Positions 1-61,914 of a stretch of 64,000 nucleotides of DNA are shown piece after piece. The number at the start of each line of letters is the position of its first letter. Position 1 is the first letter of the stretch. The notes under the pieces were generated by a model. That model searched no databases. It was not told the DNA's origin and was given only the letters and a program-made list of their open reading frames with translations. The DNA is from Naegleria gruberi (lineage: Eukaryota). The DNA is taken from the NCBI GenBank assembly GCA_000004985.1, contig GG738925.1; one strand, 5' to 3'. The translations under genes and the position numbers were made by a program.

Positions 1-320
1 CTCAAACCCAAACCCAAACCCAAACCCAAACCCAACCCAAACCCAAACCCAAACCCAAACCCAAACCCAAACCCAAACCCAAACCCAAACCCAAACCCAA
101 ACCCAAACCCAAACCCAAACCCAAACCCAAACCCAAACCCAAACCCAAACCCAAACCCAAACCCAAACCCAAACCCAAACCCAAACCCAAACCCAAACCC
201 AAACCCAAACCCAAACCCAAACCCAAACCCAAACCCAAACCCAAACCCAAACCCAAACCCAAACCCAAACCCAAACCCAAACCCAAACCCAAACCCAAAC
301 CCAAACCCAAACCCAAACCC
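1..320. repeat. Telomeric repeat array (CCCAAA)n on the + strand, i.e. (TTTGGG)n G-strand; C-rich strand runs 5'->3' inward from the left edge, as expected for a left chromosome terminus
   Basis: About 53 perfect tandem hexamers from base 1. One CCCAA 5-mer variant near base 30 and a ctcaaa start. The array ends abruptly at ~320 into unique AT-rich sequence. The tool ORF 2..340 (GLGLGL...) is a translation artefact of this repeat. Confidence 0.9.
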
Positions 321-1059
321 ACGACTAAGGTCAGACCCAATATTTTGACTTTTATTCATCTTAATTAATTATCTCAATAAATACTCATTATAAATCAATA
401 TATTATATATCAATATACTCCAAATTGAATATATAATCATATTATAACATAATATTACATCATTATAATGACTTATATAAGTTAATTTCATATAATAGAT
501 TAGACAATTAGGATATCAATGAATACATTTCAAATTCAATTCAAATCAATATATCACATTATTAATCATGTTAACAACAATATATATCAATTTCAAATAC
601 TTTGGTATCATTTCAGGATATTTACTATTCAACTTGTCAACTGACCTATTCTAACATTGAAGGTAGAAATATATACCACTCCAATTCACTTCCAATACAT
701 ATATACATGATAATGAAATATATTAATATCATTTTGACATTCATCCATATTATACATGTTACATGGCTGATCCACTTGATACCTACAGGGATGTGACAAT
801 GACATCTACTATACAGATCATTATGAAATTGATACAGTACCTTACTAATGGTGAATAAACACAACTGTATCAGTTTCATGACAATTTGATATCATTCAAC
901 ATGTCAGGAGTGTAATCATGGGAATAATGAATATCAAGATAATCAAATCATATTAATTTTGAAATCTTTCAATTATAGCATCATATATAGATCAATTAAT
1001 CATAGTATTTCAATAATTGGTATTGACTTTCATATTAATTCATTCAAACCTTAATGACC

Positions 1060-4000
1060 NNNNNNNNNNNNNNNNNNNNNNNNNNNNNNNNNNNNNNNNN
1101 NNNNNNNNNNNNNNNNNNNNNNNNNNNNNNNNNNNNNNNNNNNNNNNNNNNNNNNNNNNNNNNNNNNNNNNNNNNNNNNNNNNNNNNNNNNNNNNNNNNN
1201 NNNNNNNNNNNNNNNNNNNNNNNNNNNNNNNNNNNNNNNNNNNNNNNNNNNNNNNNNNNNNNNNNNNNNNNNNNNNNNNNNNNNNNNNNNNNNNNNNNNN
1301 NNNNNNNNNNNNNNNNNNNNNNNNNNNNNNNNNNNNNNNNNNNNNNNNNNNNNNNNNNNNNNNNNNNNNNNNNNNNNNNNNNNNNNNNNNNNNNNNNNNN
1401 NNNNNNNNNNNNNNNNNNNNNNNNNNNNNNNNNNNNNNNNNNNNNNNNNNNNNNNNNNNNNNNNNNNNNNNNNNNNNNNNNNNNNNNNNNNNNNNNNNNN
1501 NNNNNNNNNNNNNNNNNNNNNNNNNNNNNNNNNNNNNNNNNNNNNNNNNNNNNNNNNNNNNNNNNNNNNNNNNNNNNNNNNNNNNNNNNNNNNNNNNNNN
1601 NNNNNNNNNNNNNNNNNNNNNNNNNNNNNNNNNNNNNNNNNNNNNNNNNNNNNNNNNNNNNNNNNNNNNNNNNNNNNNNNNNNNNNNNNNNNNNNNNNNN
1701 NNNNNNNNNNNNNNNNNNNNNNNNNNNNNNNNNNNNNNNNNNNNNNNNNNNNNNNNNNNNNNNNNNNNNNNNNNNNNNNNNNNNNNNNNNNNNNNNNNNN
1801 NNNNNNNNNNNNNNNNNNNNNNNNNNNNNNNNNNNNNNNNNNNNNNNNNNNNNNNNNNNNNNNNNNNNNNNNNNNNNNNNNNNNNNNNNNNNNNNNNNNN
1901 NNNNNNNNNNNNNNNNNNNNNNNNNNNNNNNNNNNNNNNNNNNNNNNNNNNNNNNNNNNNNNNNNNNNNNNNNNNNNNNNNNNNNNNNNNNNNNNNNNNN
2001 NNNNNNNNNNNNNNNNNNNNNNNNNNNNNNNNNNNNNNNNNNNNNNNNNNNNNNNNNNNNNNNNNNNNNNNNNNNNNNNNNNNNNNNNNNNNNNNNNNNN
2101 NNNNNNNNNNNNNNNNNNNNNNNNNNNNNNNNNNNNNNNNNNNNNNNNNNNNNNNNNNNNNNNNNNNNNNNNNNNNNNNNNNNNNNNNNNNNNNNNNNNN
2201 NNNNNNNNNNNNNNNNNNNNNNNNNNNNNNNNNNNNNNNNNNNNNNNNNNNNNNNNNNNNNNNNNNNNNNNNNNNNNNNNNNNNNNNNNNNNNNNNNNNN
2301 NNNNNNNNNNNNNNNNNNNNNNNNNNNNNNNNNNNNNNNNNNNNNNNNNNNNNNNNNNNNNNNNNNNNNNNNNNNNNNNNNNNNNNNNNNNNNNNNNNNN
2401 NNNNNNNNNNNNNNNNNNNNNNNNNNNNNNNNNNNNNNNNNNNNNNNNNNNNNNNNNNNNNNNNNNNNNNNNNNNNNNNNNNNNNNNNNNNNNNNNNNNN
2501 NNNNNNNNNNNNNNNNNNNNNNNNNNNNNNNNNNNNNNNNNNNNNNNNNNNNNNNNNNNNNNNNNNNNNNNNNNNNNNNNNNNNNNNNNNNNNNNNNNNN
2601 NNNNNNNNNNNNNNNNNNNNNNNNNNNNNNNNNNNNNNNNNNNNNNNNNNNNNNNNNNNNNNNNNNNNNNNNNNNNNNNNNNNNNNNNNNNNNNNNNNNN
2701 NNNNNNNNNNNNNNNNNNNNNNNNNNNNNNNNNNNNNNNNNNNNNNNNNNNNNNNNNNNNNNNNNNNNNNNNNNNNNNNNNNNNNNNNNNNNNNNNNNNN
2801 NNNNNNNNNNNNNNNNNNNNNNNNNNNNNNNNNNNNNNNNNNNNNNNNNNNNNNNNNNNNNNNNNNNNNNNNNNNNNNNNNNNNNNNNNNNNNNNNNNNN
2901 NNNNNNNNNNNNNNNNNNNNNNNNNNNNNNNNNNNNNNNNNNNNNNNNNNNNNNNNNNNNNNNNNNNNNNNNNNNNNNNNNNNNNNNNNNNNNNNNNNNN
3001 NNNNNNNNNNNNNNNNNNNNNNNNNNNNNNNNNNNNNNNNNNNNNNNNNNNNNNNNNNNNNNNNNNNNNNNNNNNNNNNNNNNNNNNNNNNNNNNNNNNN
3101 NNNNNNNNNNNNNNNNNNNNNNNNNNNNNNNNNNNNNNNNNNNNNNNNNNNNNNNNNNNNNNNNNNNNNNNNNNNNNNNNNNNNNNNNNNNNNNNNNNNN
3201 NNNNNNNNNNNNNNNNNNNNNNNNNNNNNNNNNNNNNNNNNNNNNNNNNNNNNNNNNNNNNNNNNNNNNNNNNNNNNNNNNNNNNNNNNNNNNNNNNNNN
3301 NNNNNNNNNNNNNNNNNNNNNNNNNNNNNNNNNNNNNNNNNNNNNNNNNNNNNNNNNNNNNNNNNNNNNNNNNNNNNNNNNNNNNNNNNNNNNNNNNNNN
3401 NNNNNNNNNNNNNNNNNNNNNNNNNNNNNNNNNNNNNNNNNNNNNNNNNNNNNNNNNNNNNNNNNNNNNNNNNNNNNNNNNNNNNNNNNNNNNNNNNNNN
3501 NNNNNNNNNNNNNNNNNNNNNNNNNNNNNNNNNNNNNNNNNNNNNNNNNNNNNNNNNNNNNNNNNNNNNNNNNNNNNNNNNNNNNNNNNNNNNNNNNNNN
3601 NNNNNNNNNNNNNNNNNNNNNNNNNNNNNNNNNNNNNNNNNNNNNNNNNNNNNNNNNNNNNNNNNNNNNNNNNNNNNNNNNNNNNNNNNNNNNNNNNNNN
3701 NNNNNNNNNNNNNNNNNNNNNNNNNNNNNNNNNNNNNNNNNNNNNNNNNNNNNNNNNNNNNNNNNNNNNNNNNNNNNNNNNNNNNNNNNNNNNNNNNNNN
3801 NNNNNNNNNNNNNNNNNNNNNNNNNNNNNNNNNNNNNNNNNNNNNNNNNNNNNNNNNNNNNNNNNNNNNNNNNNNNNNNNNNNNNNNNNNNNNNNNNNNN
3901 NNNNNNNNNNNNNNNNNNNNNNNNNNNNNNNNNNNNNNNNNNNNNNNNNNNNNNNNNNNNNNNNNNNNNNNNNNNNNNNNNNNNNNNNNNNNNNNNNNNN

Positions 4001-4971
4001 NNNNNNNNNNNNNNNNNNNNNNNNNNNNNNNNNNNNNNNNNNNNNNNNNNNNNNNNNNNNNNNNNNNNNNNNNNNNNNNNNNNNNNNNNNNNNNNNNNNN
4101 NNNNNNNNNNNNNNNNNNNNNNNNNNNNNNNNNNNNNNNNNNNNNNNNNNNNNNNNNNNNNNNNNNNNNNNNNNNNNNNNNNNNNNNNNNNNNNNNNNNN
4201 NNNNNNNNNNNNNNNNNNNNNNNNNNNNNNNNNNNNNNNNNNNNNNNNNNNNNNNNNNNNNNNNNNNNNNNNNNNNNNNNNNNNNNNNNNNNNNNNNNNN
4301 NNNNNNNNNNNNNNNNNNNNNNNNNNNNNNNNNNNNNNNNNNNNNNNNNNNNNNNNNNNNNNNNNNNNNNNNNNNNNNNNNNNNNNNNNNNNNNNNNNNN
4401 NNNNNNNNNNNNNNNNNNNNNNNNNNNNNNNNNNNNNNNNNNNNNNNNNNNNNNNNNNNNNNNNNNNNNNNNNNNNNNNNNNNNNNNNNNNNNNNNNNNN
4501 NNNNNNNNNNNNNNNNNNNNNNNNNNNNNNNNNNNNNNNNNNNNNNNNNNNNNNNNNNNNNNNNNNNNNNNNNNNNNNNNNNNNNNNNNNNNNNNNNNNN
4601 NNNNNNNNNNNNNNNNNNNNNNNNNNNNNNNNNNNNNNNNNNNNNNNNNNNNNNNNNNNNNNNNNNNNNNNNNNNNNNNNNNNNNNNNNNNNNNNNNNNN
4701 NNNNNNNNNNNNNNNNNNNNNNNNNNNNNNNNNNNNNNNNNNNNNNNNNNNNNNNNNNNNNNNNNNNNNNNNNNNNNNNNNNNNNNNNNNNNNNNNNNNN
4801 NNNNNNNNNNNNNNNNNNNNNNNNNNNNNNNNNNNNNNNNNNNNNNNNNNNNNNNNNNNNNNNNNNNNNNNNNNNNNNNNNNNNNNNNNNNNNNNNNNNN
4901 NNNNNNNNNNNNNNNNNNNNNNNNNNNNNNNNNNNNNNNNNNNNNNNNNNNNNNNNNNNNNNNNNNNNNNN
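1060..4971. other. Assembly gap (run of N, ~3.9 kb) in the subtelomere
   Basis: Continuous n characters. Tool ORFs 1017..4976 and 1054..5004 are artefacts of translating N. Confidence 0.99.
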
Positions 4972-5144: not shown

Positions 5145-6029
5145 ATGCCAAAGGTTGGAGGAGGATTCAAAAAACCACCTAACAAGTCTGGATTACCAGC
5201 AACAACAACAGTACCAGAGGACAACAAGTTTTTTGTTGAATTATTTGACGGTTTTATTGAAAAAAACAAATCGGATATTGTGGCAAAGATTGAGGAAGAG
5301 ATTGAAACTTTCAAGAAGAAGAAAGATGAATTGAAAAATATTATTGTAAAGAAGGAAAAGGGAGTGGATGATGAAGAACTGGACTTTTCAGAGAGTGAGG
5401 ATGAATCATCTGTCCAAATTATTGCGGAATACCATGCGGAAAAGAAGAATATCAATGAAGAATGCAAGAAGAATAAGAAGTTGAAAAACATCTCTCCTGT
5501 GGCAGAAAGGCAAGATGCTAAAATTGATGAAATTGGTAAACAGCTTGCCAAAGAAACAAAGAAAAGGAAGCGAGTGGATGAAGATTTTGTATGTGAGCCA
5601 CCAATTCTATCTGCAGCTGATGCATTGGATCCATCTAACATTTTGAATGAAAATGTTGACTCCCTCTTGAATGAGTTTTGTGATTTAGTTGATGCTGACT
5701 TGACAAAGTTAGATATTGGCATGACACAATCAAGCAATTTCCTTCGTTCAGTTGAAGATCGTGTCAAACAAGCAACTCAGCAATTGGATTCCCAAATCAT
5801 TGAATTAGAAAAATCGAGAGAGGAGATACTCAAAGAATTCGATAACAAATTGGAAGCTTTGAAATTCTCCAAGACTCAAACAGTTGGACCATATCTAGAA
5901 ATGGTTGAAACAAGCAAAAAGGTACTTGAAAAACAAACAACAAATTGCAAATTAAAAGCCCAAAAAGCATCAGCCAAAATCAAAGACAGAGTGCAAAGAT
6001 TCCTTGAGGATCCAATAAATGACCAATAA
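5145..6029 (+). CDS. Hypothetical K/E-rich coiled-coil protein (294 aa)
   Basis: Uninterrupted ORF with charged, coiled-coil-like composition. The antisense ORF 5042..5767 is low-complexity S/F mirror sequence and is rejected. No recognisable catalytic motif. Confidence 0.5.
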   Translation: MPKVGGGFKKPPNKSGLPATTTVPEDNKFFVELFDGFIEKNKSDIVAKIEEEIETFKKKKDELKNIIVKKEKGVDDEELDFSESEDESSVQIIAEYHAEKKNINEECKKNKKLKNISPVAERQDAKIDEIGKQLAKETKKRKRVDEDFVCEPPILSAADALDPSNILNENVDSLLNEFCDLVDADLTKLDIGMTQSSNFLRSVEDRVKQATQQLDSQIIELEKSREEILKEFDNKLEALKFSKTQTVGPYLEMVETSKKVLEKQTTNCKLKAQKASAKIKDRVQRFLEDPINDQ

Positions 6030-7714
6030 ATGCCCAATCAAATTGAATTTTTTTTAAATAATTGGCCAATTGAAAAAATGGCCAATCCAATCTCTGTCAT
6101 ACTTTACCGAAAAGCACAATAAGGTAATCAATAGGGAAGAATCTTATTTCCGAAATTAATTTTTACCATCATATCTAAATCATTGAATAATGAATTATTG
6201 ATACAGGAATCATATGTTCAATTGTTATATTCATGTCAGTAATCAGTGAAGGTGACACTTCTCAAACCTAAGCATCAACATTTCAATATCTAGACTGTCA
6301 ATTTCACTGAAACTTGAAATACTACCTGTTTATATGATATAATGATGACTCTTCATAGTAACATGCATGTGAAAACATATATTGACACTTTTCATCTTGT
6401 TATATTTATAGAGATGGTATCCAACAGAGTCAGTTCATAATATTAAATATAGAAACTCATTCTGTATGACATGTTTGATGTATAGAATTGTTTTTATATT
6501 GATGGAAATCAGTTTGAAATAATACGATGAAATTGACACGGTCTAGTCACCATTACATGACAAATTGACCATAGTTTACATTCCATCTCAGTCATTTCAG
6601 CGATTTATTGGTTAATTCCACCATTATATTTCTCATACATTGTAGTACAGTTTATATTTGAAGAGTGATTTCTGTGTAGATTATTATAATCGTAATACCA
6701 TTCAATACCAATAAAACTCAATAGAAGAGTCAATTCTTCTCATTTTCAAATAGATTATTCAATATAGAACACATCTAGATAGTTTCCAGATCATAAAAGT
6801 CAAGATACTATATATGGTCTTTGATTAATTTTAAAAATAGACTGCCGTTAATTACTGGAATATTAATTCAAAGCTTGATGATCAAGCTATTGATTGAAAT
6901 CAAACCGATTATTGAATATTGATCATTGAATTGGTGAACAATCACTCTCTTGATAATGCTACATATTTCATATTGCATGCAAATCAACCTGATTCAATCT
7001 ACAAAGGTTGGTAGTTGCACCACTTCGTGGCGAAACTACCCATCCACGATGAATCAACATGTGATTCACTTCCATTCAACTCAATTTGACCGTTATAATC
7101 AATAAATCAATGAAATGTTACTTTATTAGCAATACCTATTCAATCTAATGAGTAGATTCACGTCCCAAACATTTGACTTCTCAAAGTCCAGAATTCAAAA
7201 GTTAGTTCTGACCTGACCTTTAAATATCTATCAATATAAGAAATGAAACCATCAAATTTACATCATTAATAGATGATAAGAAATATAATCAATGATATGA
7301 ATCTTCACTAAGTAATCTCTTAAATAACCCAAATAAATCAACTCTGAATCCTAACCAACCTCTAGGATTTGAGTATGATCAATCTATTTTCCATCCCTAG
7401 TCATCCAATGGTATTCTCTTGAGTTTTTAGGCATTTATTGAGTAATCCATGTTTTCTCAAGTAGAATTGTATAAAATTAAATATTCAATCTCATATAAGG
7501 ATATAGAACACTGTTTGAATGCTTTGATTTCGTTTCTGAGTAGAGTGTTATCGATCAATGTCCTTCGCATCAATAACAAGTGTTATGGTTCTTTAATACA
7601 TAGATTACCAGAAAATCAACTAGTTCAGTTCGTCCTCAATCATTTGGAACTTGATTCTAAGCCAGTGTGTGAAATTACATTAGATTAAACTGTTGGCTTG
7701 TCCATTTATCACTT

Positions 7715-8656
7715 TTATTGATTCATTGACTTGGAATACCCTTTCATCAAGTGACAATTAATAAAATCACTGTTAACACATTGAACTTCCAATTGAAGAC
7801 CAGCATGTCTGTAACCAGCTCCAACTGGTAGAGAGATTGGAACAATATCTTGACGAGGTCCAAGTAATTCTTTCCATTTAGTGATAACTCTAACGAAATT
7901 TGGATTAACTTGATTGGACTTAGCAGCAAAATTGGCATCTCCAACTCTTGGTTGACCAAAAGTAACAACCTTGATGGTAGCCTTTGTTTCTGGTCTTTTA
8001 CCTGATCCTAAATAATCAACAGCAGCCAATTCAGAAAGAGAACCTCCTTGACTATGTCCATAAAATCCAATTTCATTGAGTAATCCAAGAGATTTGATAG
8101 TGTCGAAAATGTTTTGACGATCAACTAAATATTCACTCAAGAATCCTGTATGAACAGCATATGCTGAACTTCCAATTTGAAAACTAGAGAAGGCTGTTTT
8201 CAAGTTATTGGCCCAGTCAACTGGATCATTCATTTGTGTTCCTTTAAAAGAAACAATTGCTGACTTGGTAGCAGAATTGAAATATACTTTACAATTGGTT
8301 GCTTTAGCAGCATTCACAAAATTCTTAACCAACTTGTATCCTTGAACTGTTGATAGTTCCTGTGATCCATAATTTGCTGCAATTTCTGCTGCCAATTTTA
8401 CATCTGTCAAAGTGACCTTGGCTTTAATTGTCTTGAGTGATTTGGAATATGGTGTAATCAATCCATTGTAAGCATAATTTGCAGGTGCAAAGATCGAAGC
8501 AATAAACTTGGCCTTCTGGCTCACTTCACCAAGCAAGCCAAGTGTCTCAGCACTCAGTGTGTTGTGGGTCTTGCTGCCGTTTACTCGAGATGGATCGCTG
8601 GTTACGATCAACAACAAGACGATCGCAAGGAGAACGGTCAAGGTCAATAATTTCAT
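7715..8656 (-). CDS. Secreted lipase class 3 (alpha/beta hydrolase) protein, 313 aa
   Basis: N-terminal signal peptide MKLLTLTVLLAIVLLLIV. Nucleophile elbow FYGHSQGGSLSELAA (GHSxG) followed by VVTFGQPRVGDANFA, typical of Lipase_3 family members. A-rich context before the ATG (aaaaaaaATG). Confidence 0.8.
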   Translation of the reverse strand: MKLLTLTVLLAIVLLLIVTSDPSRVNGSKTHNTLSAETLGLLGEVSQKAKFIASIFAPANYAYNGLITPYSKSLKTIKAKVTLTDVKLAAEIAANYGSQELSTVQGYKLVKNFVNAAKATNCKVYFNSATKSAIVSFKGTQMNDPVDWANNLKTAFSSFQIGSSAYAVHTGFLSEYLVDRQNIFDTIKSLGLLNEIGFYGHSQGGSLSELAAVDYLGSGKRPETKATIKVVTFGQPRVGDANFAAKSNQVNPNFVRVITKWKELLGPRQDIVPISLPVGAGYRHAGLQLEVQCVNSDFINCHLMKGYSKSMNQ

Positions 8657-9357
8657 TTTTTTTAAAGATGATTATTGGAATGACTAGCACGATGTTTGAC
8701 AACGGATAAAACATGGTGCACATTGAACATAGTAACCGGTTCATAATTAATTTTCAAACAATAATTGATGATGATTGTTGAATAGTATAATTTTCCAATG
8801 ATGATTCATGATAATGATGATGGAAAGAAGATGATGAAATTAATTGATTTTCATATTGTTCTTCATGACCATTAGTGAATGTTATTGTTAATAATACTAA
8901 TAATACTGATGACTTCCGAAATTGATGATGATTTTCTAAAATCTAAATGAAACCACCACAACCAACAATAATAGAACCATTCTTGAGAGATGATAATGAT
9001 GAGGAGGCTCCTCCAGAAACAGTAATACTGCTTGATGATGAGAGAACCTTGTTGACAAGTGTTTTCATTTTTTTCTTTGCTGCTTACCAATCAAAAACAA
9101 TAAAACAACAATTCATGTATTTTTTATATCATTAAATGAATAATATAAAGAACATTTTAAAAACTTCAAATTTGTAATTTGTTAACTTCTGTTCATCCAA
9201 ACATGTAAAATTTGTTCATTTTTATCCAAACTCTCCTAATTTATCTCAATCACTCTCTTTCTGTCATTGTATTCCTTTTTAAATTAACCAAATCGAGTGC
9301 AATTACTTTCGAATAAAAAGCCAACCAACAACCACATCAAATTCCAACAATAAAAAA

Positions 9358-10509
9358 ATGACAAACAATCAAAATAACAATCAATACAAAAGAAAGCTTG
9401 CTAATATCGAAGAAGAACACATTGCCAATGAAGAGGTTTATCAGGATGAAGATCTTTGGTGTAGTGAAGAGGTGGACCAATTGGTGTTCAATCAAACAAA
9501 GAAAAGAAAGGTTTCGAATGAAAGTTTAGACGAAATTGAAGAGAATTCACATGATAATTACTCAGATACTTCATCAGATAGTTCTGTGGAAGACTTTGGT
9601 GAGGTTGGTGAGTTGCTAATGATTGGAAATCGTCCAGAGGACTGTTTTTACTTGTCAGAGTTTACAGGAGAACCTAAAGTTTCGTTTCTTGAAACTAAAC
9701 TTTCCATTACAAAAATTCCAGCAGATTGCTGGGCAATCATTTACACATTCAGTGGCCTGGAACATTACTTCATTAATAGAATTTACAAACTCAATACCAC
9801 CCTAAGAGAATCTCTATATGAAAGTGAACTATTTTGGGAAGGAGTCATTGCTGAAGGTTGGCCAGACGCCAAAAATTTCACCATCAACTGGAGAGAATAC
9901 TTTTTCAAGAAATTCATTGCATTCGAAACTCATAAGCGTTTAAATCCTCAAATAATAACTGGAGATCATCAAGCAACTTTAGTTTCGTTTCCAATTCAAA
10001 GAACTTTCGAAAATGAATGTTTCATTTACAATCAAATTGAAACAACTACATGCGTCAACCAAACTGTCACTCAATCAAACATGAATTGGATTGTAAATGT
10101 TTTTTTGAAAACTTGTCCAAAAATTGTTGGATTGAGAATTCAAGTGAAATTTCCAAATTTGAGACTTTGGGCAACTTTTAATAACAAAGAATTCCCAATT
10201 TTTGATGAAGATCAAGTTGTCCTCAATGGAGTCCAAAATCTTTTCCATGCCATGAATTTAAATGTTGACATTCATGCACCTTTCTTTTTGGATTTTGACG
10301 AAAGATTCCAAAAATTGAGAATTGGAGAATTGGAACAGAGTACTTACTTTGCTTGGTTTTGTAATAGAATACTTGGAGATGTTCCATTTCCAATTGAGGA
10401 AATTTTGGGCCTACATGATTATACGAATCATTTGAGTTTCGGTTTGGAAGAAGAGAGAAATAGAATAATCGAATTGTATTACAAATACAAAAAGCTATTG
10501 GGCTTGTAA
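9358..10509 (+). CDS. Hypothetical protein with acidic N-terminus and possible F-box-like segment (383 aa)
   Basis: Single ORF with aaaaaATG context. The segment KIPADCWAIIYTFSGLEHYF resembles an F-box core. No other motif recognised. Confidence 0.5.
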   Translation: MTNNQNNNQYKRKLANIEEEHIANEEVYQDEDLWCSEEVDQLVFNQTKKRKVSNESLDEIEENSHDNYSDTSSDSSVEDFGEVGELLMIGNRPEDCFYLSEFTGEPKVSFLETKLSITKIPADCWAIIYTFSGLEHYFINRIYKLNTTLRESLYESELFWEGVIAEGWPDAKNFTINWREYFFKKFIAFETHKRLNPQIITGDHQATLVSFPIQRTFENECFIYNQIETTTCVNQTVTQSNMNWIVNVFLKTCPKIVGLRIQVKFPNLRLWATFNNKEFPIFDEDQVVLNGVQNLFHAMNLNVDIHAPFFLDFDERFQKLRIGELEQSTYFAWFCNRILGDVPFPIEEILGLHDYTNHLSFGLEEERNRIIELYYKYKKLLGL

Positions 10510-10721
10510 ATGTTACAATAAAAGCTTTGAATTTCTTTGAAATCAACAGAATTATAACGAAATTCAAAAAAGTAAATTGATGGAGTACGCCAAGTGCCCT
10601 CTTTGAAAGTTTTTCCATCTCGTAGTGGATATTTAGTACATGTAACCTTGTTCTAATCTAAACTTTCACTCACAAACAAAACGATTAAAGTCCAATTTGT
10701 CAGAACAATCATCAAAAAAAA

Positions 10722-12192
10722 ATGACAAGACAAGAGACAACTGACTTTGAACCCAAATTAAAGAAACTCAAGCTTTCCCAACCAAGTGTATCTCTTACCA
10801 ACCTGACCTTTGAAATATTAGCAAATATTTTTGTCTATTTGGATCCAATAACAGATTTACTGCCAAATGTCATGCCTGTAAGTGAAAAGTTTTATCATGC
10901 GTTGGGAGGAAGAGATGAATTGCAGACTAAATTCCCTTTGTATAACAGAATCATTCTCAAACGTAGATTCCCCACCAAGAGAATGCACTGTAGTGAATCT
11001 TTCCTTCTGAGATTAGTCAACTTTATTTCAAGAACATCAACAAACTGTCAAGTGTTAAAAATTGGAGAAATGGCTGAAGATGAATTTGAGGACCGCCAAG
11101 AATCTGATTATGAATTATCCATTGATTTCTTTGAGCAATCTAACAAGAGTGGCTGTTTCAGAAATTTGAAGAAATTACATGTTTATTTCACGCCATTTTT
11201 CACCACAGAATTAGAAACTGAACGAAATGTCAAAATTTTACAAGAATGGTTTTCCAATTTGAAAGATTTGGAATCATTGAATTTGAAGAATGCTTTACCA
11301 CAATCTGTCATGAATACCATTTTGAAAGAATGCAAGAATTTGAGACATTTGACTTGTTCTGGGAATAATCTTGCCCAAATCGATGCAAATATTCCAATTT
11401 TGACTAATTTAGAGTCATTAGCGCCAATTCAATCAGAGAATGACATTTCTGCCTTCTTTTCAAAAGTTCCAAATTTGAAAAAACTAGTTTTTAATGATTA
11501 TTACGAAGTAATGACATTTATTGAAATTAGAAATAATTGTAAACTTTTGAAAGAGTTTCATTTTACTGAGAGATTTGCAAATACTGATGTTTTACATACG
11601 GTAATGCAAATGAATCAATTGGAAAGGATTTCAATTTCAGAAATTGAATGGGATTATGATTCTCTTTTCCATTTCGTTTCTCAGTTTAGTTTGAAACAGT
11701 TTAAAGATTCGTATGTCTTTTCGTTTTATTTGGAAGGACAAACAGCTTGCCTAGATCATTTGGTCAACTACCTTGGAGCATGTGGATGATTTCTTCCATA
11801 CTCAAGATCATTCCAAGTATTTACAAATGTGTAAAAAGTTCAAACAAGCAAGAATTTTAAATTTAACTCAACTCGAACCTACAATGAATCATGGAATAGT
11901 TAAGGATCTGTTTGAGGAATTGGAATATTTGAGAGAAATTAGGTTAAATGCTAGTGGAGAATTCGAAAGTGATGTCATTAAGCAACTTTTTCACTACTTT
12001 GGAGAAGAAAATAAGATTAGTTCAGTTTCACTTGTTCCTATTGGAAACACCTTCACAGTCAAAATTAAAACTCAAAAGAGAGGAGATTTAACATTAAGGG
12101 TGAAAGTAGTATCAAATGATCTTCTTGGACTGGAAGATGAAGAAGAAGAGAATCGGTTTGAGGCTTCTTTCAAAATTTATGTATTCGAATAA
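10722..12192 (+). CDS. F-box / leucine-rich-repeat protein; reading frame shifts once near 11755-11789 (possible pseudogene or sequence error)
   Basis: N-terminal F-box (LTFEILANIFVYLDPITDLL) then LRR-like units (LKNLKKLHVYF, LKDLESLNLKN, CKNLRHLTCSGNNL). ORF 10722..11789 and ORF 11773..12192 overlap in different frames. The second frame opens only after a stop at ~11752 and continues the LRR-like sequence (ARILNLTQLEPT, LEYLREIRLN). No GT..AG intron reconciles the two frames: a 35-nt GTATGT..ACAG candidate gives a third, closed frame. Confidence 0.5.
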
Positions 12193-22951: not shown

Positions 22952-25900
22952 ATGACGATGAATAACATCAGACGAAATCATCATCATTACTACAGCAGTC
23001 AATATTGTTGGTGGAGAGAATCATCTCTGACTGTCATCTTTATACTGCTGCTGTCGAGTCTTGTACTGTTGAATGGACCAAGCACTCTCATCACTGCACA
23101 AAGACCTGGGCCATTCAATCCGAATAATCCGAGTGGACCTCCATCTCCTAATTTTCAAGATGATTCTACTCAACCACAAGGAATTTGTGCAAATGGCTCA
23201 ACAACATGGGATCAGGATATTTGTACGGAAACTAGTGAATTGTCGTCTCTTTCGATAAGACCTAGCTATTGTAAGAATATTAATCCCTATGTGATTCCGT
23301 ATCCTTTCAGTGATCATGAGTTTAGTGTCAAGTTGAGTCCTGATTGTTATGATTACAAAACTGGATTGAATTCAAATGATATTGAGAGAGCTGAGTGTGA
23401 AACAGTTAAATCAATCAGTTCTGTGGAGTTTGGACCTTTTGTTTTGCCTGATTTGAATGTTACAAGTAAGAGATTTTCATTGTTTGGAATGAATACTGGT
23501 GAAATCTATGCAATGGATTTTAACACGAATGAACTTTTCCAATTTGAAAATCAAACCAGTGACCCAATTAAGAAATTGGATGCCTTTGTGTTGGGATTGA
23601 ACAATACTGCAGCTTATATCATCTCTTCGGATGGTCAACACTCTTTAAAAGTTCTCTATTTTAACTATCTCAATAGAGAAACAAGTGCTCTATGTGAAAA
23701 AATTACCTATAACGAAAGTGTTGTGGATTTTAAGAGTTTGAATGTTGATGGACAATTATACTTGGTTGCTCTGACATCTTCCTCATTGGAATCTTCGACC
23801 AAATATCTTAAATTCTCAAAAATGGATGAATATTGCAATATTGTGATGAATGAATTTACTTATTCTATTCAACCTCCAAAAGGAAGCTCTAAAATTTCAT
23901 TTGACATTTTCACACAAGCTATCAACAATACTGCTTCCTATTCTCCTTCTATTTATACTAGATCTTCATCTATTCCAACCAGAAATATCATCTCTGTACA
24001 AACAGAACAATCAGTTTCAGTTATCAATTTTGTCACTAAAGATTTGAATCTTGACTTGCATAGTAATTCAACATCACCATACTTGGTTTTTACAACCAAT
24101 GCTGGCAGTGGTCAACACATTACCAGTAGTTCTTTCATCACAGAAGAATTGAGAAGAATTGATTTTGCTACCAATTCTTCAACAAGTTGTTCACTTTCTG
24201 AGGGAGAATTGAGATTCCCTTCACAAGAAGTTCACTTACTTGTTACTTTATTTGATGGAACAAACTCAACATTAATCGTTAGAAATTTACCTGAATTTTC
24301 AGCATTTACTCTCAAGAATTTATCTGATATGCTAACTAATGAACATCCATTCAATAGAGATTTTGCGTGTGATATTGCTGCTGGATATTACCAATCTGGA
24401 CCTAATACTTGTGTTTTGGCCAATGAATATAGTATTCCTTTGGAAGCAAAAGCTACTCAAGTTCACTCAAGATTCATTGATATTCCTGAACTTATTAAGG
24501 AGTATTTGGCTCAAGTTACAACAGAAAGCTCCAAGAATACAGAGCAGTTCAGAACAGCTGTTAACTTGTTGTGTATTGTTAGTGCTGGAGGTGATCCTAT
24601 GAATCCAAACAGACCATTCGATCCAAATAGATATATGGCCTGTGTACAAGCTTTGACAACAAGTATGGGAAGTGTCACTTGTCAAGCACAAGCATTTGGA
24701 GCTTTAGGAACTGAAAATCTCAGACAATTGATGAACGATTATTTGCAGTACAACGTTTTCATCACTATGGAGAATAATGCCTTGTTAGTTTTGGGAGTTC
24801 AACAAAGATTTTGTGATCCACTCTCAAAAGAACTTATCATTAAGCCTTTCAACAAGTTGCAACTCATTGGCAGAGCCATTAACACATACATTTCTGGCAA
24901 TGGTCAACATATCTTCATATCCATAACAAGGAAAAAATGGGAAATTGAATCATTAGCTAGATACAAGGAAATTTGTGATATGTTGGAAGAAGACCCAGAT
25001 AATATCTTCCTCAAAGATTATAGAACTTCGTGCATCAAAAATCCAGCCAAACCAATCAATATTAATACCTTTGGTTTCTACCTGTCAAGTTGCTTCCCTG
25101 GCATTTATTGTCCATCTTTGACAAAGAATGAATTGCAAGCAGTTCCTGACAAGTTTTACACTGAGAGACCAAATACACTCCTTCCATGTCCTATTGGCAG
25201 CTTTTGTACATTGGGTTTCAAGAGAGATTGTATCACTGGCTTTGTTTGTGATAAACCAATGATGGTTCTTCCAAAACCATGTACAGATAACGATTACAAT
25301 TGTTATGCTAGTGGATTGGCTGCTCCTTTTGCTCCTTCCAAGGGAACAGTAACTTTGGCTCCTTATTTCCCTACTCTTCCGATTGCTCCTGGATTGTACA
25401 TTGAGAGACATAGTGAAATTGATTTGGATATTAGAAAGTGCAGTGTTGGAGATTATTGTCCTTTAGCAAGAGCTCTTGATGTTCCAACATTTGGAACTGA
25501 GAATGTCAGTATTTTGGACTGTCCTGCTGGTACAGTCTGTTCAGATCCCTTTGTTATTACACCAAAAACTTGTTTTTACAATGGATCATACAGCAGCTAT
25601 TGTCCAACAGGAACTTCTGAAGAATTGCCTTGTCCAGCTGGACATTACTGTCTAGGACCTTCATCTATTAAGGAATGCAGAAGAACTCAGTACTGCCCTG
25701 CTGGTACTCTGATTCCAACTGCTTGTCCTGGTGGCTACTATTGTTCAACTCCTTCTGAAAAATTGATTTGTCCAAAAGGTCATTATTGTCCAGAAGGAAC
25801 TGTAATGCCTCATCCTTGTGGTTGGTTGTCTTTGTGTGGCGAAGGAAAATCCAATGTTGACTTTAATATTCTTGGTTTCTTCTTTGTTTTCATTTGTTTA

Positions 25901-28241
25901 ATGTTAGTTGTTGGTATTCACTCGCTCATTAAATATGTCAGATCTGTTAGTAATAAGAAACGTGATTTGGAACATCAAGAAGCTGCCATGTTGGAAATGA
26001 AGGAAATGTCAGGTGACAATACCAATTCTAAAGATGTAAGATCTGCCTATGCCTCCAAGAACTTGAGACAATCTTACGGAGATAGCAAATTTGGTGTCAA
26101 TATTGCTTTTGAGGACTTGTGTTTAACCATTGAACAATCTGGAAAGACAACTAACATTTTGAGTGGTGTCAGAGGAGAAATTAGAAACTCTGAATTGTTA
26201 GCAGTTATGGGTTGTTCAGGTTCTGGTAAGACCTCTTTCATCACATCTCTTTGTGGTAAAGCATACTATGGTAATGTAACTGGTACCATCAAACTGAATG
26301 GAAATGAAGCCAGTTTGACAAAGTTTAGAAAGTTGACTGGATTTGTGCCACAATTAGATATCATGCAAAGTCAAATGACTGTTTATGAAACATTGTACTT
26401 TGCTGCTCGAACTAGATTGGATAAGAGAAAGACCAATGAGCAAGTAGACAAATTTGTGTCAAGTTTAATTTCCATTCTTGGATTGGATGATGTCAAACAC
26501 TCTATTATTGGTGATGAAAAGAAGAGAGGTATATCAGGAGGTCAAAAGAAGAGAGTGAATATTGGTCTTGAACTTGCAGCAGCTCCTAGTGTTTTATTTT
26601 GTAAGTATTTTGTTTCTTCCTTTCTTAAATTTGAATCTTTAATAATATAACAGTGGATGAACCAACTAGTGGATGTAAGTATTTAACAATGCTATTTGAC
26701 AGTTTTTCTAATTGTAATTACAGTGGACGCTTCTACATCAAGAGAAATTATTGAAATTCTTAGAAATGTTGCTGTTAATCAACACATTACAGTTGTAACA
26801 GTTATCCATCAACCTAGATATGAAATATTTGCCATGTTCCACAAGGTCATGTTGCTAGGAAAGGGAGGCAGAGTTGTCTATTGTGGTCCAAGCATTAAAG
26901 CTGTGGAATATTTTGAGAGTATTGGATTCAAATCTCTTCCAAATGCTAATCCTGCTGATTATATTATGGATGTTATTTCTGGAAATATTGAAAGAGAAGG
27001 TGATCCTGATTTTAAGGTTGAAGATTTGTTTACCATGTGGGAAGATCACAGACATTTGTATGAAGAAGATTCCGCATTGCTTTCACCATCAAGTGCTACC
27101 TCTCCAATTATTGAGAGGGAAGATGCTGATTCTGTGGAAAATTCTGAATTAAGCGGACCTACCAGTGTTGATTGTTCCTATGAAGTATTTAAGAAGGAGA
27201 ATGACAATAGAAAGATCAGTTACTTTACTCAATTCATGATGTGTTTGAAGAGATGTCTCTTCCAACTCACTAGAGACACTTCTGGATTTGTTTTGGATGT
27301 TGGTTTGGTTTACTTGGCAGGTCTCAGTATTGGTGTTATTTTCTATGAAAGTAGATATATTGGACCACCAGCAACCGAAGTGATTGATCAATGTCCTGAA
27401 GTAATGAGATACAAATGTTCCCTTCCAGTTAATGATCCAATCATGACTATGGCATCTATTCTTGGCTTAGGTTTGGCACTTTGTGGATTGATGAGCTCGC
27501 TGAGTAATTTTGGAGATGAAATCACAGTATTTATCAGAGAGTACGAAAGTAATATATCTCCAATGATGTACTTCTTGGCAAAGAATCTGATTCAAATTCC
27601 AATCATTATGATTACACCAGCAATCTTCATTTCCATCTTTTATATTATCAGTAACCCTCAAGGAGAGGTTTGGCAATAGTAAGTAACATTCAAATAGTAA
27701 TATGAACAACTTTAACAAATCAATTAATAGCTATGTTATTTTGATGAGTACAAACTTTGTGAGTTATGGAATTGGTTATCTATTATCACTAATCTTCCCT
27801 GCTTCATTAAGTAAGGTGGCTGGAGTAGTGTTTGTTGTGATTAATTATCTAGTTTCAGGTATTAGACCAACAATGAGTGAAATGGATGACATGTTCTTCC
27901 CAATGCCTTACATTTATTCCCTCTCCTTTTTGAGATATTCTACAGAAGCTCTCTATTTGACAGAAGTGAAGAAATATTCTCAAGTGTATGATGTAAATTC
28001 AGGTTTAGATTTAATGGGCTATGCCTTCAAGAATTTCCCTCGAATGGCCATAACTATTCCACTATTTGGTATCATCTATAGAATTTTAGCTTGTATTGCT
28101 CTTTTAATATTGCCTCCTTCATCACTAGTGAGACGAGTTGTAGGAAAGGTCATTGATTACAAGTCTCACATTGCCAAGATCAAGAAACTGATTGTCAGGA
28201 AAAAGCAACGTGATCATGAACAATTGAGCATTAATTATTGA
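22952..28241 (+). CDS. ABCG-type half transporter with ~930-aa N-terminal Cys-rich ectodomain; 4 exons: 22952..26600, 26654..26674, 26724..27678, 27731..28241 (1711 aa)
   Basis: Signal peptide LTVIFILLLSSLVLLNGPSTLITAQ. The membrane-proximal ectodomain carries repeated CP(A/T/K/G)G..YC motifs (CPAGTVC, CPTGTSEELPCPAGHYC, CPAGTLIPTACPGGYYC, CPKGHYCPEGTVMPHPC) of GCC2/GCC3 (ephrin-receptor-like) type. TM ILGFFFVFICLMLVVGIH. NBD with Walker A GCSGSGKTS, signature ISGGQKKRVNIG and Walker B VLF|LDEPTSG|LD. The Walker B/D-loop heptapeptide lies on a 21-nt micro-exon between introns of 53 and 49 nt (GTAAGT..ACAG/TACAG). The TMD carries about six TM segments after a third 52-nt intron. All junctions checked for phase against the tool ORFs. 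Confidence 0.8.
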
Positions 28242-48704: not shown

Positions 48705-50069
<1,365 letters not shown>

Positions 50070-50270: not shown

Positions 50271-50388
50271 GGCTACGGCCATATCACGATTCATGCACCT
50301 CATCCCGTCCGATTTGAGAAGTTAAGCATCGTCGAGCCACATCAGTACTGAGGTTGGAGACAACTTGGGAACCTGTGGTGCTGTAGTC
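50271..50388 (+). rRNA. 5S ribosomal RNA gene, copy 1 (~118 nt)
   Basis: GGCTACGGCCATATCACG..CCGTCCGATTTGAGAAGTTAAGC..AGTACTGAGGTTGGAGAC..TGGGAACCTGTGGTGCTGTAGTC. The 5' and 3' ends form a 9-bp helix I. Followed immediately by a T5 pol III terminator. Confidence 0.9.
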
Positions 50389-50476
50389 TTTTTAATTTCA
50401 TTTTAATTTCAACAATTTGTTAGGTTTTATTTACAATGATTTGCCTAGGTTTACAAAATTTTGAGTTATATGGAGA

Positions 50477-52661: not shown

Positions 52662-52779
52662 GGCTACGGCCATATCACGATTCGTGCACCTCATCCCGTC
52701 CGATTTGAGAAGTTAAGCATCGTCGAGCCACATCAGTACTGAGGTTGGAGACAACTTGGGAACCTGTGGTGCTGTAGTC
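52662..52779 (+). rRNA. 5S ribosomal RNA gene, copy 2 (~118 nt)
   Basis: Identical to copy 1 except one A->G (gattcAtgcac vs gattcGtgcac). Followed by T6. Confidence 0.9.
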
Positions 52780-52848
52780 TTTTTTCTAAAGAGGTTTAAA
52801 GTTTCCTAACATCTATTTATTTATACAGTATTGTGTTGTACAATTCTT

Positions 52849-53564: not shown

Positions 53565-53812
53565 CAAATCTTTGATTATTTTCTCGATGGTTTTAAGAGA
53601 TGAAACTTTGAAAATTGATATTTAGCTAGATTGCATTTCATTCCTCCTATGATTAAAAAAGTAAAACTCAAACATTGGGATAAGGCACGAATCTTTATTT
53701 ATTTTCTCAGTGGTTTTAAGAGATAAAACTTTGAACATTGAAAAATAGGTAGATTACATACTATTACCTCTATTATGAAAAAAGCAAAACTCAAATATTC
53801 CAGAAAGAGTCA
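53565..53812. repeat. Two tandem direct copies (~121 and ~127 bp, ~80% identical)
   Basis: Copy 1 is caaatctttgattattttctcgatggttttaagagatgaaactttgaaaattga...aaaaaagtaaaactcaaacattgggataagg. Copy 2 is cgaatctttatttattttctcagtggttttaagagataaaactttgaacattga...aaaaaagcaaaactcaaatattccagaaaga. It lies immediately 3' of the tRNA-Asp gene (on the tRNA strand). Confidence 0.7.
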
Positions 53813-53822
53813 AAAATTATGA

Positions 53823-53893
53823 CTCGATTGCCGGGAATTGAACCCGGGTCGCCAGAGTGACAGTCTGGAATGCTACCACTATACCACACCCGA
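53823..53893 (-). tRNA. tRNA-Asp (anticodon GUC), ~71 nt
   Basis: Reverse complement reads TCGGGTG TG GTATAGTGGTAGC ... CCAGA CTGTCAC TCTGG CGAC CCGGG TTCAATT CCCGG CAATCGA G. The anticodon loop CTGTCAC gives GTC. Canonical D-loop AGTGGTA and T-arm GGTTCAATTCC. U1:A72 and discriminator G, as in eukaryotic tRNA-Asp. One acceptor-stem mismatch. T5 run follows on the minus strand. Confidence 0.8.
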
Positions 53894-58247: not shown

Positions 58248-59660
58248 TTATTCGAAAACGCTTACTCTATTCAACCTCTTAAGATAAGGAAAGGCCTTTC
58301 TGCACACGCTTTTATCTAAATAAATTGAATTTGTGAAATCAATCTCACAAAGTCTTTTCATATTTCCACTTTTCATGAATTCTCTAAAACTAGACTCGGT
58401 AATGTTCGTTCTGCAGAGTTTCAAAACTTTTAAGTTTACAAGGGAGCTTTGACTCAAGTATAAAAGACCTTTGGCATAGATTTGATTTCCAGAAAAGTTA
58501 ATTTGTGTTAAATTTTCTAAATATGGAGAATTGGAAATGAATTTCATACTCAAATCAGTTATTACAAATATATTATTAGTAGAAACATAAGTAATAGATC
58601 TCAAACTGGAAGCATATGGAGAGGTCGATATTGTCGATATCCCGTCATCTGTCACCTCATTTTCTGAAACATCGAGTATGGCAAGTTTTGGAGCTATTCC
58701 ACTAAATAATTGAATAATTTCCGTATCATCAATTCCACAACAAGTCAGATTCAAGTTTGTTAAATTTGGAGCATTGTTTTGGAACCAGGATATTGAAAGA
58801 TTATTATGTGAAGCATCCAAACTTGTTAAATTAGGAAATAAATTTAAAGATATTAATTCCCAGCTCATTTTGTCGCTAATTCCACAATTGGACATGTTAA
58901 GAGTTCTCAATGAGGTCAATTTACAGACATCTCCTAATGATTTTGAGAATGGTCGATTTTCAAGGTTTAAATAAGTGAGAGATGGCATATTCCACTTGTC
59001 TATTGATTCTAATGTACTCAAATTCGTATACCCTTCCAAATTCAACGATTCAAGTGTTGACAATGTTCCGATCAGATTCAATTGAGCTGCTTCAATATTA
59101 CAACATGATAAATTCAATGATTTCAATCCAGTTGGACCAAATTTAACAAAATTATAATACCAATTATTAGAAATATGAAGACCACTCAAATTCAACCTTG
59201 TCAAATGTTTCAATTCGGCAATATTCGTATAAATATCATTCGTTATTTGACTATTATTTCTCAAACTCAAACTAGTCAATTGCTTCAACGAACAAACTTC
59301 CTCCAAATCTTTCAACCCCAACCTTCCAATAACTATATGCAAACTAGTAAGTTTCGTCCAATTATTTTCCACAAACAATCCCTTCACTCCATCATTTACA
59401 TTTTTCAAAGTCAAACTCTGAATATTACGAAACGATCCACCACTCGCACACTCATAGATTGCCTTCTTTTGATTGATCGATGGGATTAGTTTAAAATCCA
59501 ACACGAGAGAGCGAACATTCTCGCTCACCCATTCGTAAAAGTTTCGGCAGAGGAGTGAGATGGATTTTTTCAAGGTTTTTGTATCGAGAAATAAAAAGAT
59601 GTGATGATGGAATAGTTCGGGTGGGAGTAGCAGGTGATTTGCTGGTTCGTGTGTTGTCAT
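58248..59660 (-). CDS. F-box / leucine-rich-repeat protein, 470 aa
   Basis: N-terminal F-box LLLPPELFHHHIFLFLDTKTLKKSISLLCRNFYEWV. Then >12 LRRs of the L..L.L..N/C.I type (LTSLSLRNNSQITN, LTRLNLSGLHISNN, LKSLNLSCCNIEAA, LESLNLEGYTNLS, ...). Confidence 0.75.
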   Translation of the reverse strand: MTTHEPANHLLLPPELFHHHIFLFLDTKTLKKSISLLCRNFYEWVSENVRSLVLDFKLIPSINQKKAIYECASGGSFRNIQSLTLKNVNDGVKGLFVENNWTKLTSLHIVIGRLGLKDLEEVCSLKQLTSLSLRNNSQITNDIYTNIAELKHLTRLNLSGLHISNNWYYNFVKFGPTGLKSLNLSCCNIEAAQLNLIGTLSTLESLNLEGYTNLSTLESIDKWNMPSLTYLNLENRPFSKSLGDVCKLTSLRTLNMSNCGISDKMSWELISLNLFPNLTSLDASHNNLSISWFQNNAPNLTNLNLTCCGIDDTEIIQLFSGIAPKLAILDVSENEVTDDGISTISTSPYASSLRSITYVSTNNIFVITDLSMKFISNSPYLENLTQINFSGNQIYAKGLLYLSQSSLVNLKVLKLCRTNITESSFREFMKSGNMKRLCEIDFTNSIYLDKSVCRKAFPYLKRLNRVSVFE

Positions 59661-59802
59661 TTTTTTTTGTAAAGTTTTTGTGAGGTGTTTAGTCTTGTTT
59701 CGTCCAAGATCAAAATTGAAAAAAACACAATTTCCAATGTAATCAAATGAAATTGTTTATTTGATTTTCATATTGTCATGTAATATCACCCTTTCGAATA
59801 AT

Positions 59803-60084
59803 TTACAACATATCATTCATCTTCTTTCCAGGACTAATCTCATTAACAGTCAATCCACCTTGAGGATTTTCAATAACCTTCAAATGAATGTACTCCTCAT
59901 CGCCTACCTTAATTTTCATCTTGTGCAAAATTCCATTTACAACCTGAGTAGTATGTTCAATGAGTTCAAAGTTCTTGTAGGTCATGCTAGTTTGCTTCTC
60001 GACCATTGGTTTGACAATGAAGGCCATTTGAGAGGCTTCCATGGTTGGGGTGTGATGCTTGTTGTGTTGTCCTACTTCGATCAT
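59803..60084 (-). CDS. Cystatin A / stefin-like cysteine-protease inhibitor, 93 aa, no signal peptide
   Basis: QVVNG (QxVxG reactive-site motif) in TTQVVNGILHKMKIKVGDEEYIHLKV parallels stefin A KTQVVAGTNYYIKVRAGDNKYMHLKV. N-terminal segment GQHNKHHTPTMEASQMAFIVKPMVEKQTSMTYKNFELIEH resembles stefin EIQEIVDKVKPQLEEKTNETYGKLEAVQY. Size and lack of leader fit the type-1 cystatin class. Confidence 0.7.
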   Translation of the reverse strand: MIEVGQHNKHHTPTMEASQMAFIVKPMVEKQTSMTYKNFELIEHTTQVVNGILHKMKIKVGDEEYIHLKVIENPQGGLTVNEISPGKKMNDML

Positions 60085-60438
60085 TTTCAGAATCTGTTGT
60101 TGTGTTTCTTGTATATATGTATTCGAAACTTGTGTTTTTTTTTTGATTGTGGAAAGGGATGAATGAGTGCAGGTTATTTATTGTAGATTTTGGTATATTC
60201 CTGATTGGGTCTACCTTTTTAACTCTCAAATCGTTCCAGAATTGTTCTTTGTAAAGTCACAAGATCAGTTTACAATAACAATAATATCTGAAAAGATTTT
60301 TTATAATATAGAATACAAACTCATCACCATTATCCTTTTTTCAAAAACATTTCAATTAATTGTTAAGGTATATTAAGATAAATAAGAAAACAAAATAATA
60401 CTTGAATAAATAATTTATTGTGCGCGCAGTGAGGGATT

Positions 60439-61914
60439 TTAATGGAAAGAAGCAAAGACGGTGGTATTGGTGGAGAAACCATTAGAAACGAGGAGATTTT
60501 CAATGGAGGAATCAAACCATTCTCTACCATATTGGAGATCTGGGCAACCAGACAAGAACATGAAAATCAAAGGAATGATAGACAATGTTAAAGTAGCATT
60601 CAATACAAACTTTAACACTGGATACTTCTTTCTGATACTTCTATCAGTGAGGAAGAAGAATGAAATAAACCATGGAACGAAGAAGAAGAAGAAAAGAAGC
60701 CAATTGACCCAAATGTGAGGTGGGAATGGAATCAAATAGTAACCTTCACTGAATTTGAAGTAAACTAAAATTTCAGTAAAGATGATACCAATAGCAATCC
60801 ATGTGTTGGCACCAATTCTCTTAGTGTTTGGATCACTGATAAATTGGTAATATTCCCTAATGGCAGGCATACCAAGACAGAACCAAATCAAGAGACGGTA
60901 AATGTTAAGCTTGTTTGGTGGTGGAACCCAGAGGACATACTTGAGGAAGAAGGCATTAAGGTCAACAATGTTCATGGCCAAAATAATCAGACAAAAGTAT
61001 AAAAAGTGTTTAGCATCATCAAAGATATGCCAGTTATAGGATGTCCAGTTGAATGGGGTGAATTGTTGAACAATTCTCTTGATTTTTCCAGATGTAGTAT
61101 CAATCTTGGTGACACCAATCCACAATGGATATTTTCTCATCTTTAAATAATCACAAATCCACAATCCGATAATAATACCAAGATTATTACAAATCAAAAC
61201 ATCGAGGACAATGTGATCCCACCAACATTCTTTAAAGTTTGGCAACCAGTGTTGGAAGGTAATTTCCATAATTTCAAAGAACAAGGAAAGACACCAACAA
61301 AGCTTCAAATCACGGAAAAGCAAAGCCTTAGCAATATATCCTAGAATGTGAGCTAAAATGAATTCATCATAAACAGTATCATAAACATTCTTGAAATAAG
61401 ATATTGGATCATCAGGAGTGTAAATGGCACAACTATTTGCATAGTCTCTTTCTGGAAGTGGTTGACCCAATGATGGATCCAAATATTTCATGAATTGTCT
61501 GGCATCATCTTTAGTTTGGAACATTAAGAACACTAAAAAGAGAAGATAAACAATTCCGATACCAGTGATAAGCCTCCAAAAAGCTGGATGAGGTCTCATA
61601 AGTATACTATCACGTAATTGAACAACACAATAAACCAAGAATAATCCAACCATTCCCATTATTCCTCTCTTTACATTTTGTTCCGTACTTATAGCATCAT
61701 GACGAATGAAAGAGTAATAAAACATTACAGCAAATGAAGCCACAAGAATAGTAATAGTGTGTGGTTTGTAAAAGGCATCAATAAATTCTTCCTTTGGTGT
61801 TTTTTCTCCACTAGGCAAATTATCTGCACTCACACTTGTAGTCAAAGTTGATGAAGGACTACTCGTATCAAGGTCGGGAATGTTCTTCCTCTTTCGAAGT
61901 TCCTGTGTAGTCAT
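60439..61914 (-). CDS. Phosphatidylserine synthase, base-exchange type (PTDSS family), multi-pass membrane protein, 491 aa
   Basis: Numerous TM helices. Conserved PTDSS block KECWWDHIVLDVLICNNLGIIIGLWIC corresponds to the ECWWDQ(V/I)(L/I)LD(I/V)LLCNG(G/L)GI motif. Confidence 0.7.
   Translation of the reverse strand: MTTQELRKRKNIPDLDTSSPSSTLTTSVSADNLPSGEKTPKEEFIDAFYKPHTITILVASFAVMFYYSFIRHDAISTEQNVKRGIMGMVGLFLVYCVVQLRDSILMRPHPAFWRLITGIGIVYLLFLVFLMFQTKDDARQFMKYLDPSLGQPLPERDYANSCAIYTPDDPISYFKNVYDTVYDEFILAHILGYIAKALLFRDLKLCWCLSLFFEIMEITFQHWLPNFKECWWDHIVLDVLICNNLGIIIGLWICDYLKMRKYPLWIGVTKIDTTSGKIKRIVQQFTPFNWTSYNWHIFDDAKHFLYFCLIILAMNIVDLNAFFLKYVLWVPPPNKLNIYRLLIWFCLGMPAIREYYQFISDPNTKRIGANTWIAIGIIFTEILVYFKFSEGYYLIPFPPHIWVNWLLFFFFFVPWFISFFFLTDRSIRKKYPVLKFVLNATLTLSIIPLIFMFLSGCPDLQYGREWFDSSIENLLVSNGFSTNTTVFASFH

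Follow-up and report, generated by a model that had tools for sequence, protein, structure and literature searches.

Trypanosomatids, which belong to the Discoba, have TTAGGG telomeres, and TTTGGG is rare among eukaryotes as a pure telomere unit. In Paramecium, TTTGGG is interspersed among TTGGGG units and arises where a single position of the template causes misincorporation or stuttering. The TTAGGG or human-type repeat is probably the ancestral eukaryotic type and is also found in euglenids, another group of the Discoba (Fulnečková et al., 2013; Genome Biol Evol 5:468; PMC3622300). In the same study, 143 genome assemblies were surveyed for terminal minisatellites, the position and orientation of which were judged, and TTTGGG emerged as an unexpected candidate for the telomeric repeat of the heterolobosean Naegleria gruberi. 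The repeat, detected in silico only, is predominantly terminal across the N. gruberi assembly and a convincing candidate, for which the authors still required experimental tests (Fulnečková et al., 2013). Our literature search (BAL31, TRF, TRAP, telomerase RNA) recovered no experimental work on the telomeres of Naegleria or of other heteroloboseans.

We analyzed a stretch of DNA of 64,000 nucleotides (termed the window), which begins with an array of this hexamer. Window positions 1-321 are very probably the assembled part of a telomerase-type telomere at the left end of a nuclear scaffold of N. gruberi NEG-M. An earlier note on this DNA had proposed that the array provides the telomere unit of its source species, and had suggested a comparison with the published unit of that species. 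The unit, TTTGGG, stands and agrees with the published one, but its novelty does not, since it has been the candidate for N. gruberi since 2013 (PMC3622300). The TTTGGG telomere of N. gruberi is already known.

A hexamer array at the first base of the window

The telomeric repeat array at window 1..321, defined by an exact parse and by Tandem Repeats Finder, has the C-rich sequence (CCCAAA)n on the plus strand and the G-rich sequence (TTTGGG)n on the minus strand. Read along the plus strand, it is composed of CTCAAA + (CCCAAA)4 + CCCAA + (CCCAAA)47 + CCCA. The very first unit is a C-to-T variant (1-6), the four perfect units that follow (7-30) are separated by a 5-nt variant unit (31-35) from a further 47 perfect units (36-317), and a partial unit is found at the junction (318-321). 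Tandem Repeats Finder reports a repeat of period 6 from 3 to 321, with 53.3 copies, 99% matches and a score of 631. This is in line with the earlier count of ~53 tandem CCCAAA units and one CCCAA variant, and with the earlier statement that the hexamer is TTTGGG and not TTAGGG. In total the array contains 51 perfect CCCAAA units, and 51 perfect tandem hexamers cannot be explained by chance. Both variants (CTCAAA and CCCAA) fall in the first 35 bases. Sequencing noise is a likelier source of them than biology, because the distal tip is where the ends of Sanger reads are of low quality. As an estimate of telomere length, the assembled 321 bp are a lower bound only.

The array begins directly at base 1 of the window, its C-rich strand reads 5' to 3' inward on the plus strand, and the 3' end of the G-rich (TTTGGG)n strand faces the terminus of the sequence. 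The G-rich strand therefore runs 3'-outward, which is the universal polarity of telomeres and which bears out the previous description of the array as a genuine left-end C-strand. Two hallmarks of TxGy-type telomeres are thus seen at window base 1: a tandem array of a short unit with one G/T-rich strand, and a sequence end towards which this strand runs 5' to 3'. The terminal position of window base 1 is also consistent with the first gene in the window having the lowest protein accession found for the scaffold. On its inner side the array stops sharply, as had been noted, at 321 rather than at 320, and unique sequence (CGACTAAGG) begins at 322. Zero CCCCAA units are present in 1-321. Runs of two or more CCCAAA units were not found outside the array within the 64-kb window, the remaining 59 kb of which are gene-dense; isolated CCCAAA hexamers occur there 29 times, compared to ~20 expected from base composition.

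We read the array as a telomere because it is long, nearly perfect, telomere-oriented and located at the first base, because it ends sharply in AT-rich non-coding DNA and has no second tandem copy in 59 kb, and because an independent survey of the same genome had named TTTGGG as the candidate repeat (Fulnečková et al., 2013). With this array, one chromosome end of the NEG-M assembly of N. gruberi is confirmed; the recurrence of TTTGGG at other N. gruberi ends is taken from the survey (PMC3622300). Our own evidence for the array covers its sequence, position, orientation, purity and species, together with the occurrence of this unit at contig ends from another, heterolobosean-like organism (see below).

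Flanking DNA, source organism and scaffold gap

The telomere-adjacent (subtelomeric) DNA at 322..1059 (738 bp) is unique and non-coding, with a GC content of 24.5% and a longest stop-free stretch of at most 81 codons. It contains no internal repeats and does not significantly resemble any other part of the window, and comparison with the loci fetched from relatives yielded chance-level matches only. It is followed by an assembly gap, a run of 3,912 N (1060..4971). The earlier note had let the chromosome terminus extend over 1-1060 and had not mentioned this gap, of which 1060 is merely the first base. The first gene inside the chromosome end (5145..6029, plus strand) encodes a predicted protein of 294 aa that exactly matches N. 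gruberi EFC36764 / NAEGRDRAFT_75471 and in which no Pfam domain was found. The rest of the window has ~33% GC, is gene-dense and contains long ORFs in the standard code. Short GTAAGT...CAG introns are found, for example, at ~26601 and ~26676, both of which interrupt an ABC-transporter gene at around 26.6 kb. Standard stop codons and short GTAAGT introns had been recognized before.

The organism itself had been misjudged. Full-length identity to N. gruberi NEG-M proteins encoded on a 182,562-bp scaffold was found for six ORFs of the window: EFC36764, EFC36765, the lipase EFC36811, the LRR protein EFC36820, the phosphatidylserine synthase EFC36821 and beta-tubulin. These exact matches identify the source as a heterolobosean (Discoba) and refute the dictyostelid-like amoebozoan that had been proposed. 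An amoebozoan origin is also contradicted by the ranking of homologues, since the next-best relatives of the phosphatidylserine synthase ORF are those of Naegleria lovaniensis (80%), Willaertia magna (72%) and Acrasis kona (60%). The finding alone is of small import, and it corrects this taxonomic guess.

Scaffolding across the N gap is the only connection between the telomere-bearing piece (1,059 bp) and the gene-bearing part of the window. A genuine N. gruberi telomere might therefore have been mis-joined, with the 1,059-bp terminal contig coming from another chromosome end or with the size or orientation of the gap being wrong. In this case, which we consider improbable, the genes at 5-64 kb would not be true subtelomeric genes of this telomere. 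Apart from the 3,912-N gap as the only link, a mis-join would be in agreement with the lack, in 322-1059, of any gene or of any resemblance to other parts of the window by which contiguity might be confirmed; low GC and the absence of genes are, however, just what is expected beside a telomere. The position of the PSS-LRR gene pair could be taken in the same way. In the window the pair lies ~60 kb from the telomere end, whereas in N. lovaniensis it is found at 469-490 kb, in the middle of a 778-kb contig, and therefore the two Naegleria species do not share a terminal location of this block. Such a loss of end synteny between species, however, has no bearing on the present assembly. Sized gaps in a paired-end Sanger assembly are normally backed by several clone mates, which argues against a mis-join. 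The loci fetched from N. lovaniensis, Willaertia and A. kona all fall short of a true chromosome end: the W. magna locus examined stops ~7 kb and the A. kona locus ~2.7 kb before the end of the contig, and other A. kona contigs end inside genes.

TTTGGG arrays in environmental sequences

A metagenome collection was scanned for (CCCAAA)6, which revealed at least 120 contigs with an array. Among the matches listed, 91 contigs have short internal arrays (36-102 bp), 22 have an array at a contig end in telomere orientation and seven have one at a contig end in the opposite orientation. Internal (CCCAAA)6-17 microsatellites are common in environmental DNA among the matches listed, and therefore the hexamer alone is not diagnostic of a telomere. 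In the WGS set JAESGV01, all 13 contigs among the matches listed carry the array at the true contig end and in telomere orientation. The orientation test scored 12 of these contigs, all of which agreed (12/12, p=2.4e-4); the thirteenth is contig L082. Terminal arrays outside JAESGV01, in contrast, show no orientation bias (9 vs 7, p=0.40, among the matches listed). We rejected the global orientation bias as general evidence: at 21:7 it is significant overall, yet it is driven wholly by JAESGV01, the remainder being 9:7.

The JAESGV01 contigs contain long ORFs in the standard code and are therefore not from Paramecium. Word-indexed protein searches with these ORFs returned metagenome proteins only and no named relatives. 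An exhaustive HMMER search with a P4-ATPase fragment encoded on contig L007 recovered 30 relatives among 1.84 billion representatives. The named ones are all heterolobosean, namely three Acrasis kona clusters (51%, 42% and 41% identity) and one N. lovaniensis/N. fowleri cluster (27% identity). Contig L083 encodes a P4-ATPase fragment that is paralogous to the one of L007 and 46% identical to A. kona. These similarities suggest a heterolobosean affinity of L007 and L083. Moreover, contig L042 shares 56% amino-acid identity over 93 residues with the BTB-domain gene of the window. Degenerate CCCCAA-type variants are present inside the terminal arrays of L083 and L082, subtelomere-adjacent in L083, and are compatible with real telomeres.

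A third hallmark of TxGy-type telomeres, recurrence at sequence ends of related organisms in the same orientation, is thus seen in the JAESGV01 contigs. The simplest interpretation is that the JAESGV01 sample contains an uncultured Acrasis-like heterolobosean whose chromosomes would also end in TTTGGG. These terminal arrays support the telomere interpretation of the array in the window, and they hint that the TTTGGG motif is older than the genus Naegleria.

The same data bear on the idea that an interstitial satellite or microsatellite of this hexamer was exposed by a chance assembly break and that the array marks no chromosome end. It draws on the internal occurrence of (CCCAAA)n in many environmental genomes (the 91 contigs among the matches listed) and on the seven terminal arrays in the 'wrong' orientation (also among the matches listed). 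However, the array of the window is, at 321 bp, three times as long as the longest internal perfect array (102 bp, among the matches listed), is telomere-oriented and occurs only once in the window. In addition, the occurrences of the motif in N. gruberi are predominantly terminal according to the survey (PMC3622300), and the heterolobosean-like JAESGV01 arrays listed were terminal and correctly oriented in 13 of 13 cases. An interstitial satellite is thus very hard to credit. Even less probability, close to none, attaches to a contaminant or artefact, e.g., a macronuclear telomere of a ciliate that was joined to Naegleria DNA by scaffolding: while TTTGGG is otherwise best known from Paramecium and the 738 bp adjoining the array are without taxon assignment, Paramecium telomeres mix TTGGGG and TTTGGG and the present array has zero CCCCAA units, the survey found TTTGGG to be the candidate telomere throughout the assembly of N. 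gruberi (PMC3622300), and heterolobosean-like metagenome contigs also carry it.

Proposed mechanism and comparison with known telomere types

For the telomere at window 1-321, the analogy with TxGy-type telomeres would predict extension of the G strand at its 3' end by telomerase, with a stretch of ~1.5 CCCAAA copies in the telomerase RNA serving as the template. The template is expected to be ~9-11 nt long and a permutation of CCCAAACCCAA, and zero CCCCAA units in 321 bp would imply that it specifies T3G3 faithfully. The C strand would be filled in by lagging-strand synthesis. From general telomere biology, both the double-stranded repeats and the 3' G-overhang are presumably bound by capping proteins. 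No Rfam TER family match indicative of a telomerase RNA was found in the window, and the four matches to template-like 9-mers in the window correspond to chance level.

The only mildly new point of our analysis is the evidence, drawn from sequence comparisons, that a second, Acrasis-related heterolobosean lineage probably shares the TTTGGG end repeat. This suggests a lineage-wide change of the telomere motif within the Discoba. It is in our judgement an evenly balanced proposition that TTTGGG is shared by a wide part of the Heterolobosea, including Naegleria and the uncultured Acrasis-related JAESGV01 lineage, and represents a clade-level replacement of the ancestral TTAGGG kept by other Discoba, which is faithfully made by telomerase, unlike the misreading by-product of Paramecium. 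If true, a lineage-wide TTTGGG would help to find the telomerase RNA and the telomere-binding proteins of the group. It would also provide a yardstick for the completeness of chromosome-scale Naegleria assemblies, including those of the pathogen N. fowleri.

The telomere of Paramecium, in which TTTGGG is one of two hexamers, resembles the present one in being a G/T-rich hexamer array of the kind made by telomerase. It differs in that the array of the window is pure TTTGGG without CCCCAA, in that the code is the standard one and in that the organism is a heterolobosean and not a ciliate. The random interspersion of TTGGGG and TTTGGG that defines the Paramecium type is not seen in 1-321 of this N. 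gruberi sequence. A ciliate origin, which the earlier note had already discarded, is ruled out by the standard code and by zero CCCCAA units. With the Tetrahymena-type repeat TTGGGG, the unit of N. gruberi shares a hexamer made of T and G only, the G strand being devoid of adenine, but the former is T2G4 and the latter T3G3. The TTAGGG repeat is likewise a hexamer with a T-rich start, a GGG end and the same polarity, and is presumably made by telomerase in the same way. It is one base apart from TTTGGG, by A to T at position 3, and therefore proteins tuned to TTAGGG, namely a duplex binder of the Myb/TRF type and a G-overhang binder, would, judging from the repeat units, need altered specificity. 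The closest described system is the N. gruberi candidate of the survey (Fulnečková et al., 2013), with which the array of the window shares species, assembly, unit and the kind of evidence, namely terminal position and orientation. There is no substantive difference between the two, and the window is one instance of the surveyed repeat.

TTTGGG-ended contigs in metagenomes

Among the matches listed from a (CCCAAA)6 scan of metagenome contigs, 13 belong to the whole-genome shotgun set JAESGV01 and carry a (TTTGGG)n array at their end in telomere orientation (L007, L029, L031, L042, L054, L077, L078, L082, L083, L084, L102, L115 and L120). Two of them, L007 and L083, encode P4-ATPase fragments within 2–10 kb of the TTTGGG-bearing terminus; all named relatives of these fragments come from Acrasis kona or Naegleria. 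The JAESGV01 contigs probably derive from an uncultured acrasid-like heterolobosean of which several chromosome ends have been captured. Arrays of TTTGGG in telomere orientation also terminate low-GC contigs from other samples (L009, L064, L076, L095 and L106, again among the matches listed), some of which contain long standard-code ORFs. Finally, in the 62% GC metagenome contig L051 a terminal (CCCAAA)6 passes directly into CCCTAA/CCCTAG-type repeats (positions 1–80); this is a mixed, telomere-like end from an unrelated high-GC eukaryote.

Gene-poor stretch and short introns

A stretch of 1.7 kb without a long ORF (6030–7714, 30% GC) is flanked by the first gene on one side and a lipase gene on the other, a length which is unusual for a gap in the otherwise gene-dense window. 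Its base composition is similar to that of the telomere-adjacent DNA (322–1059); no sequence similarity was found between the two. The short GTAAGT introns that the earlier note had described in the window are borne out by the ABC-transporter gene (22952–27679, plus strand; ABC_tran and ABC2_membrane domains), which is interrupted near 26601 and 26676 by two introns of approximately 50 nt each, both of the GTAAGT...CAG type.

Beta-tubulin, 5S rRNA and tRNA genes

The intronless beta-tubulin gene (48714–50069, plus strand) has an ORF of 451 aa and is identical to N. gruberi beta-tubulin. The same protein, without any difference in sequence, is recorded from three separate contigs of N. gruberi (EFC36511, EFC36775 and EFC39761), indicating identical gene copies on several scaffolds, with one copy less than 50 kb from the telomere of the window. 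Directly 3' of the gene are two plus-strand 5S rRNA genes spaced 2.4 kb apart (50271–50389, 100 bits, and 52662–52780, 98 bits; Rfam RF00001), which account for the weak blastn matches between the window and metagenome contig L023. Further downstream, a 123-bp unit repeated 1.9 times with 81% matches (53567–53799) is directly followed by a minus-strand tRNA-Asp(GTC) gene (53823–53893), both within 53567–53893.

Synteny with N. lovaniensis

Genes for an LRR protein and phosphatidylserine synthase are neighbours both in N. gruberi (58248–61914) and in N. lovaniensis (8093–11497 of the fetched locus L001). The N. lovaniensis pair is found at 469–490 kb within a 778-kb contig. Thus, the chromosome-end location seen in N. 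gruberi is not common to the two species.
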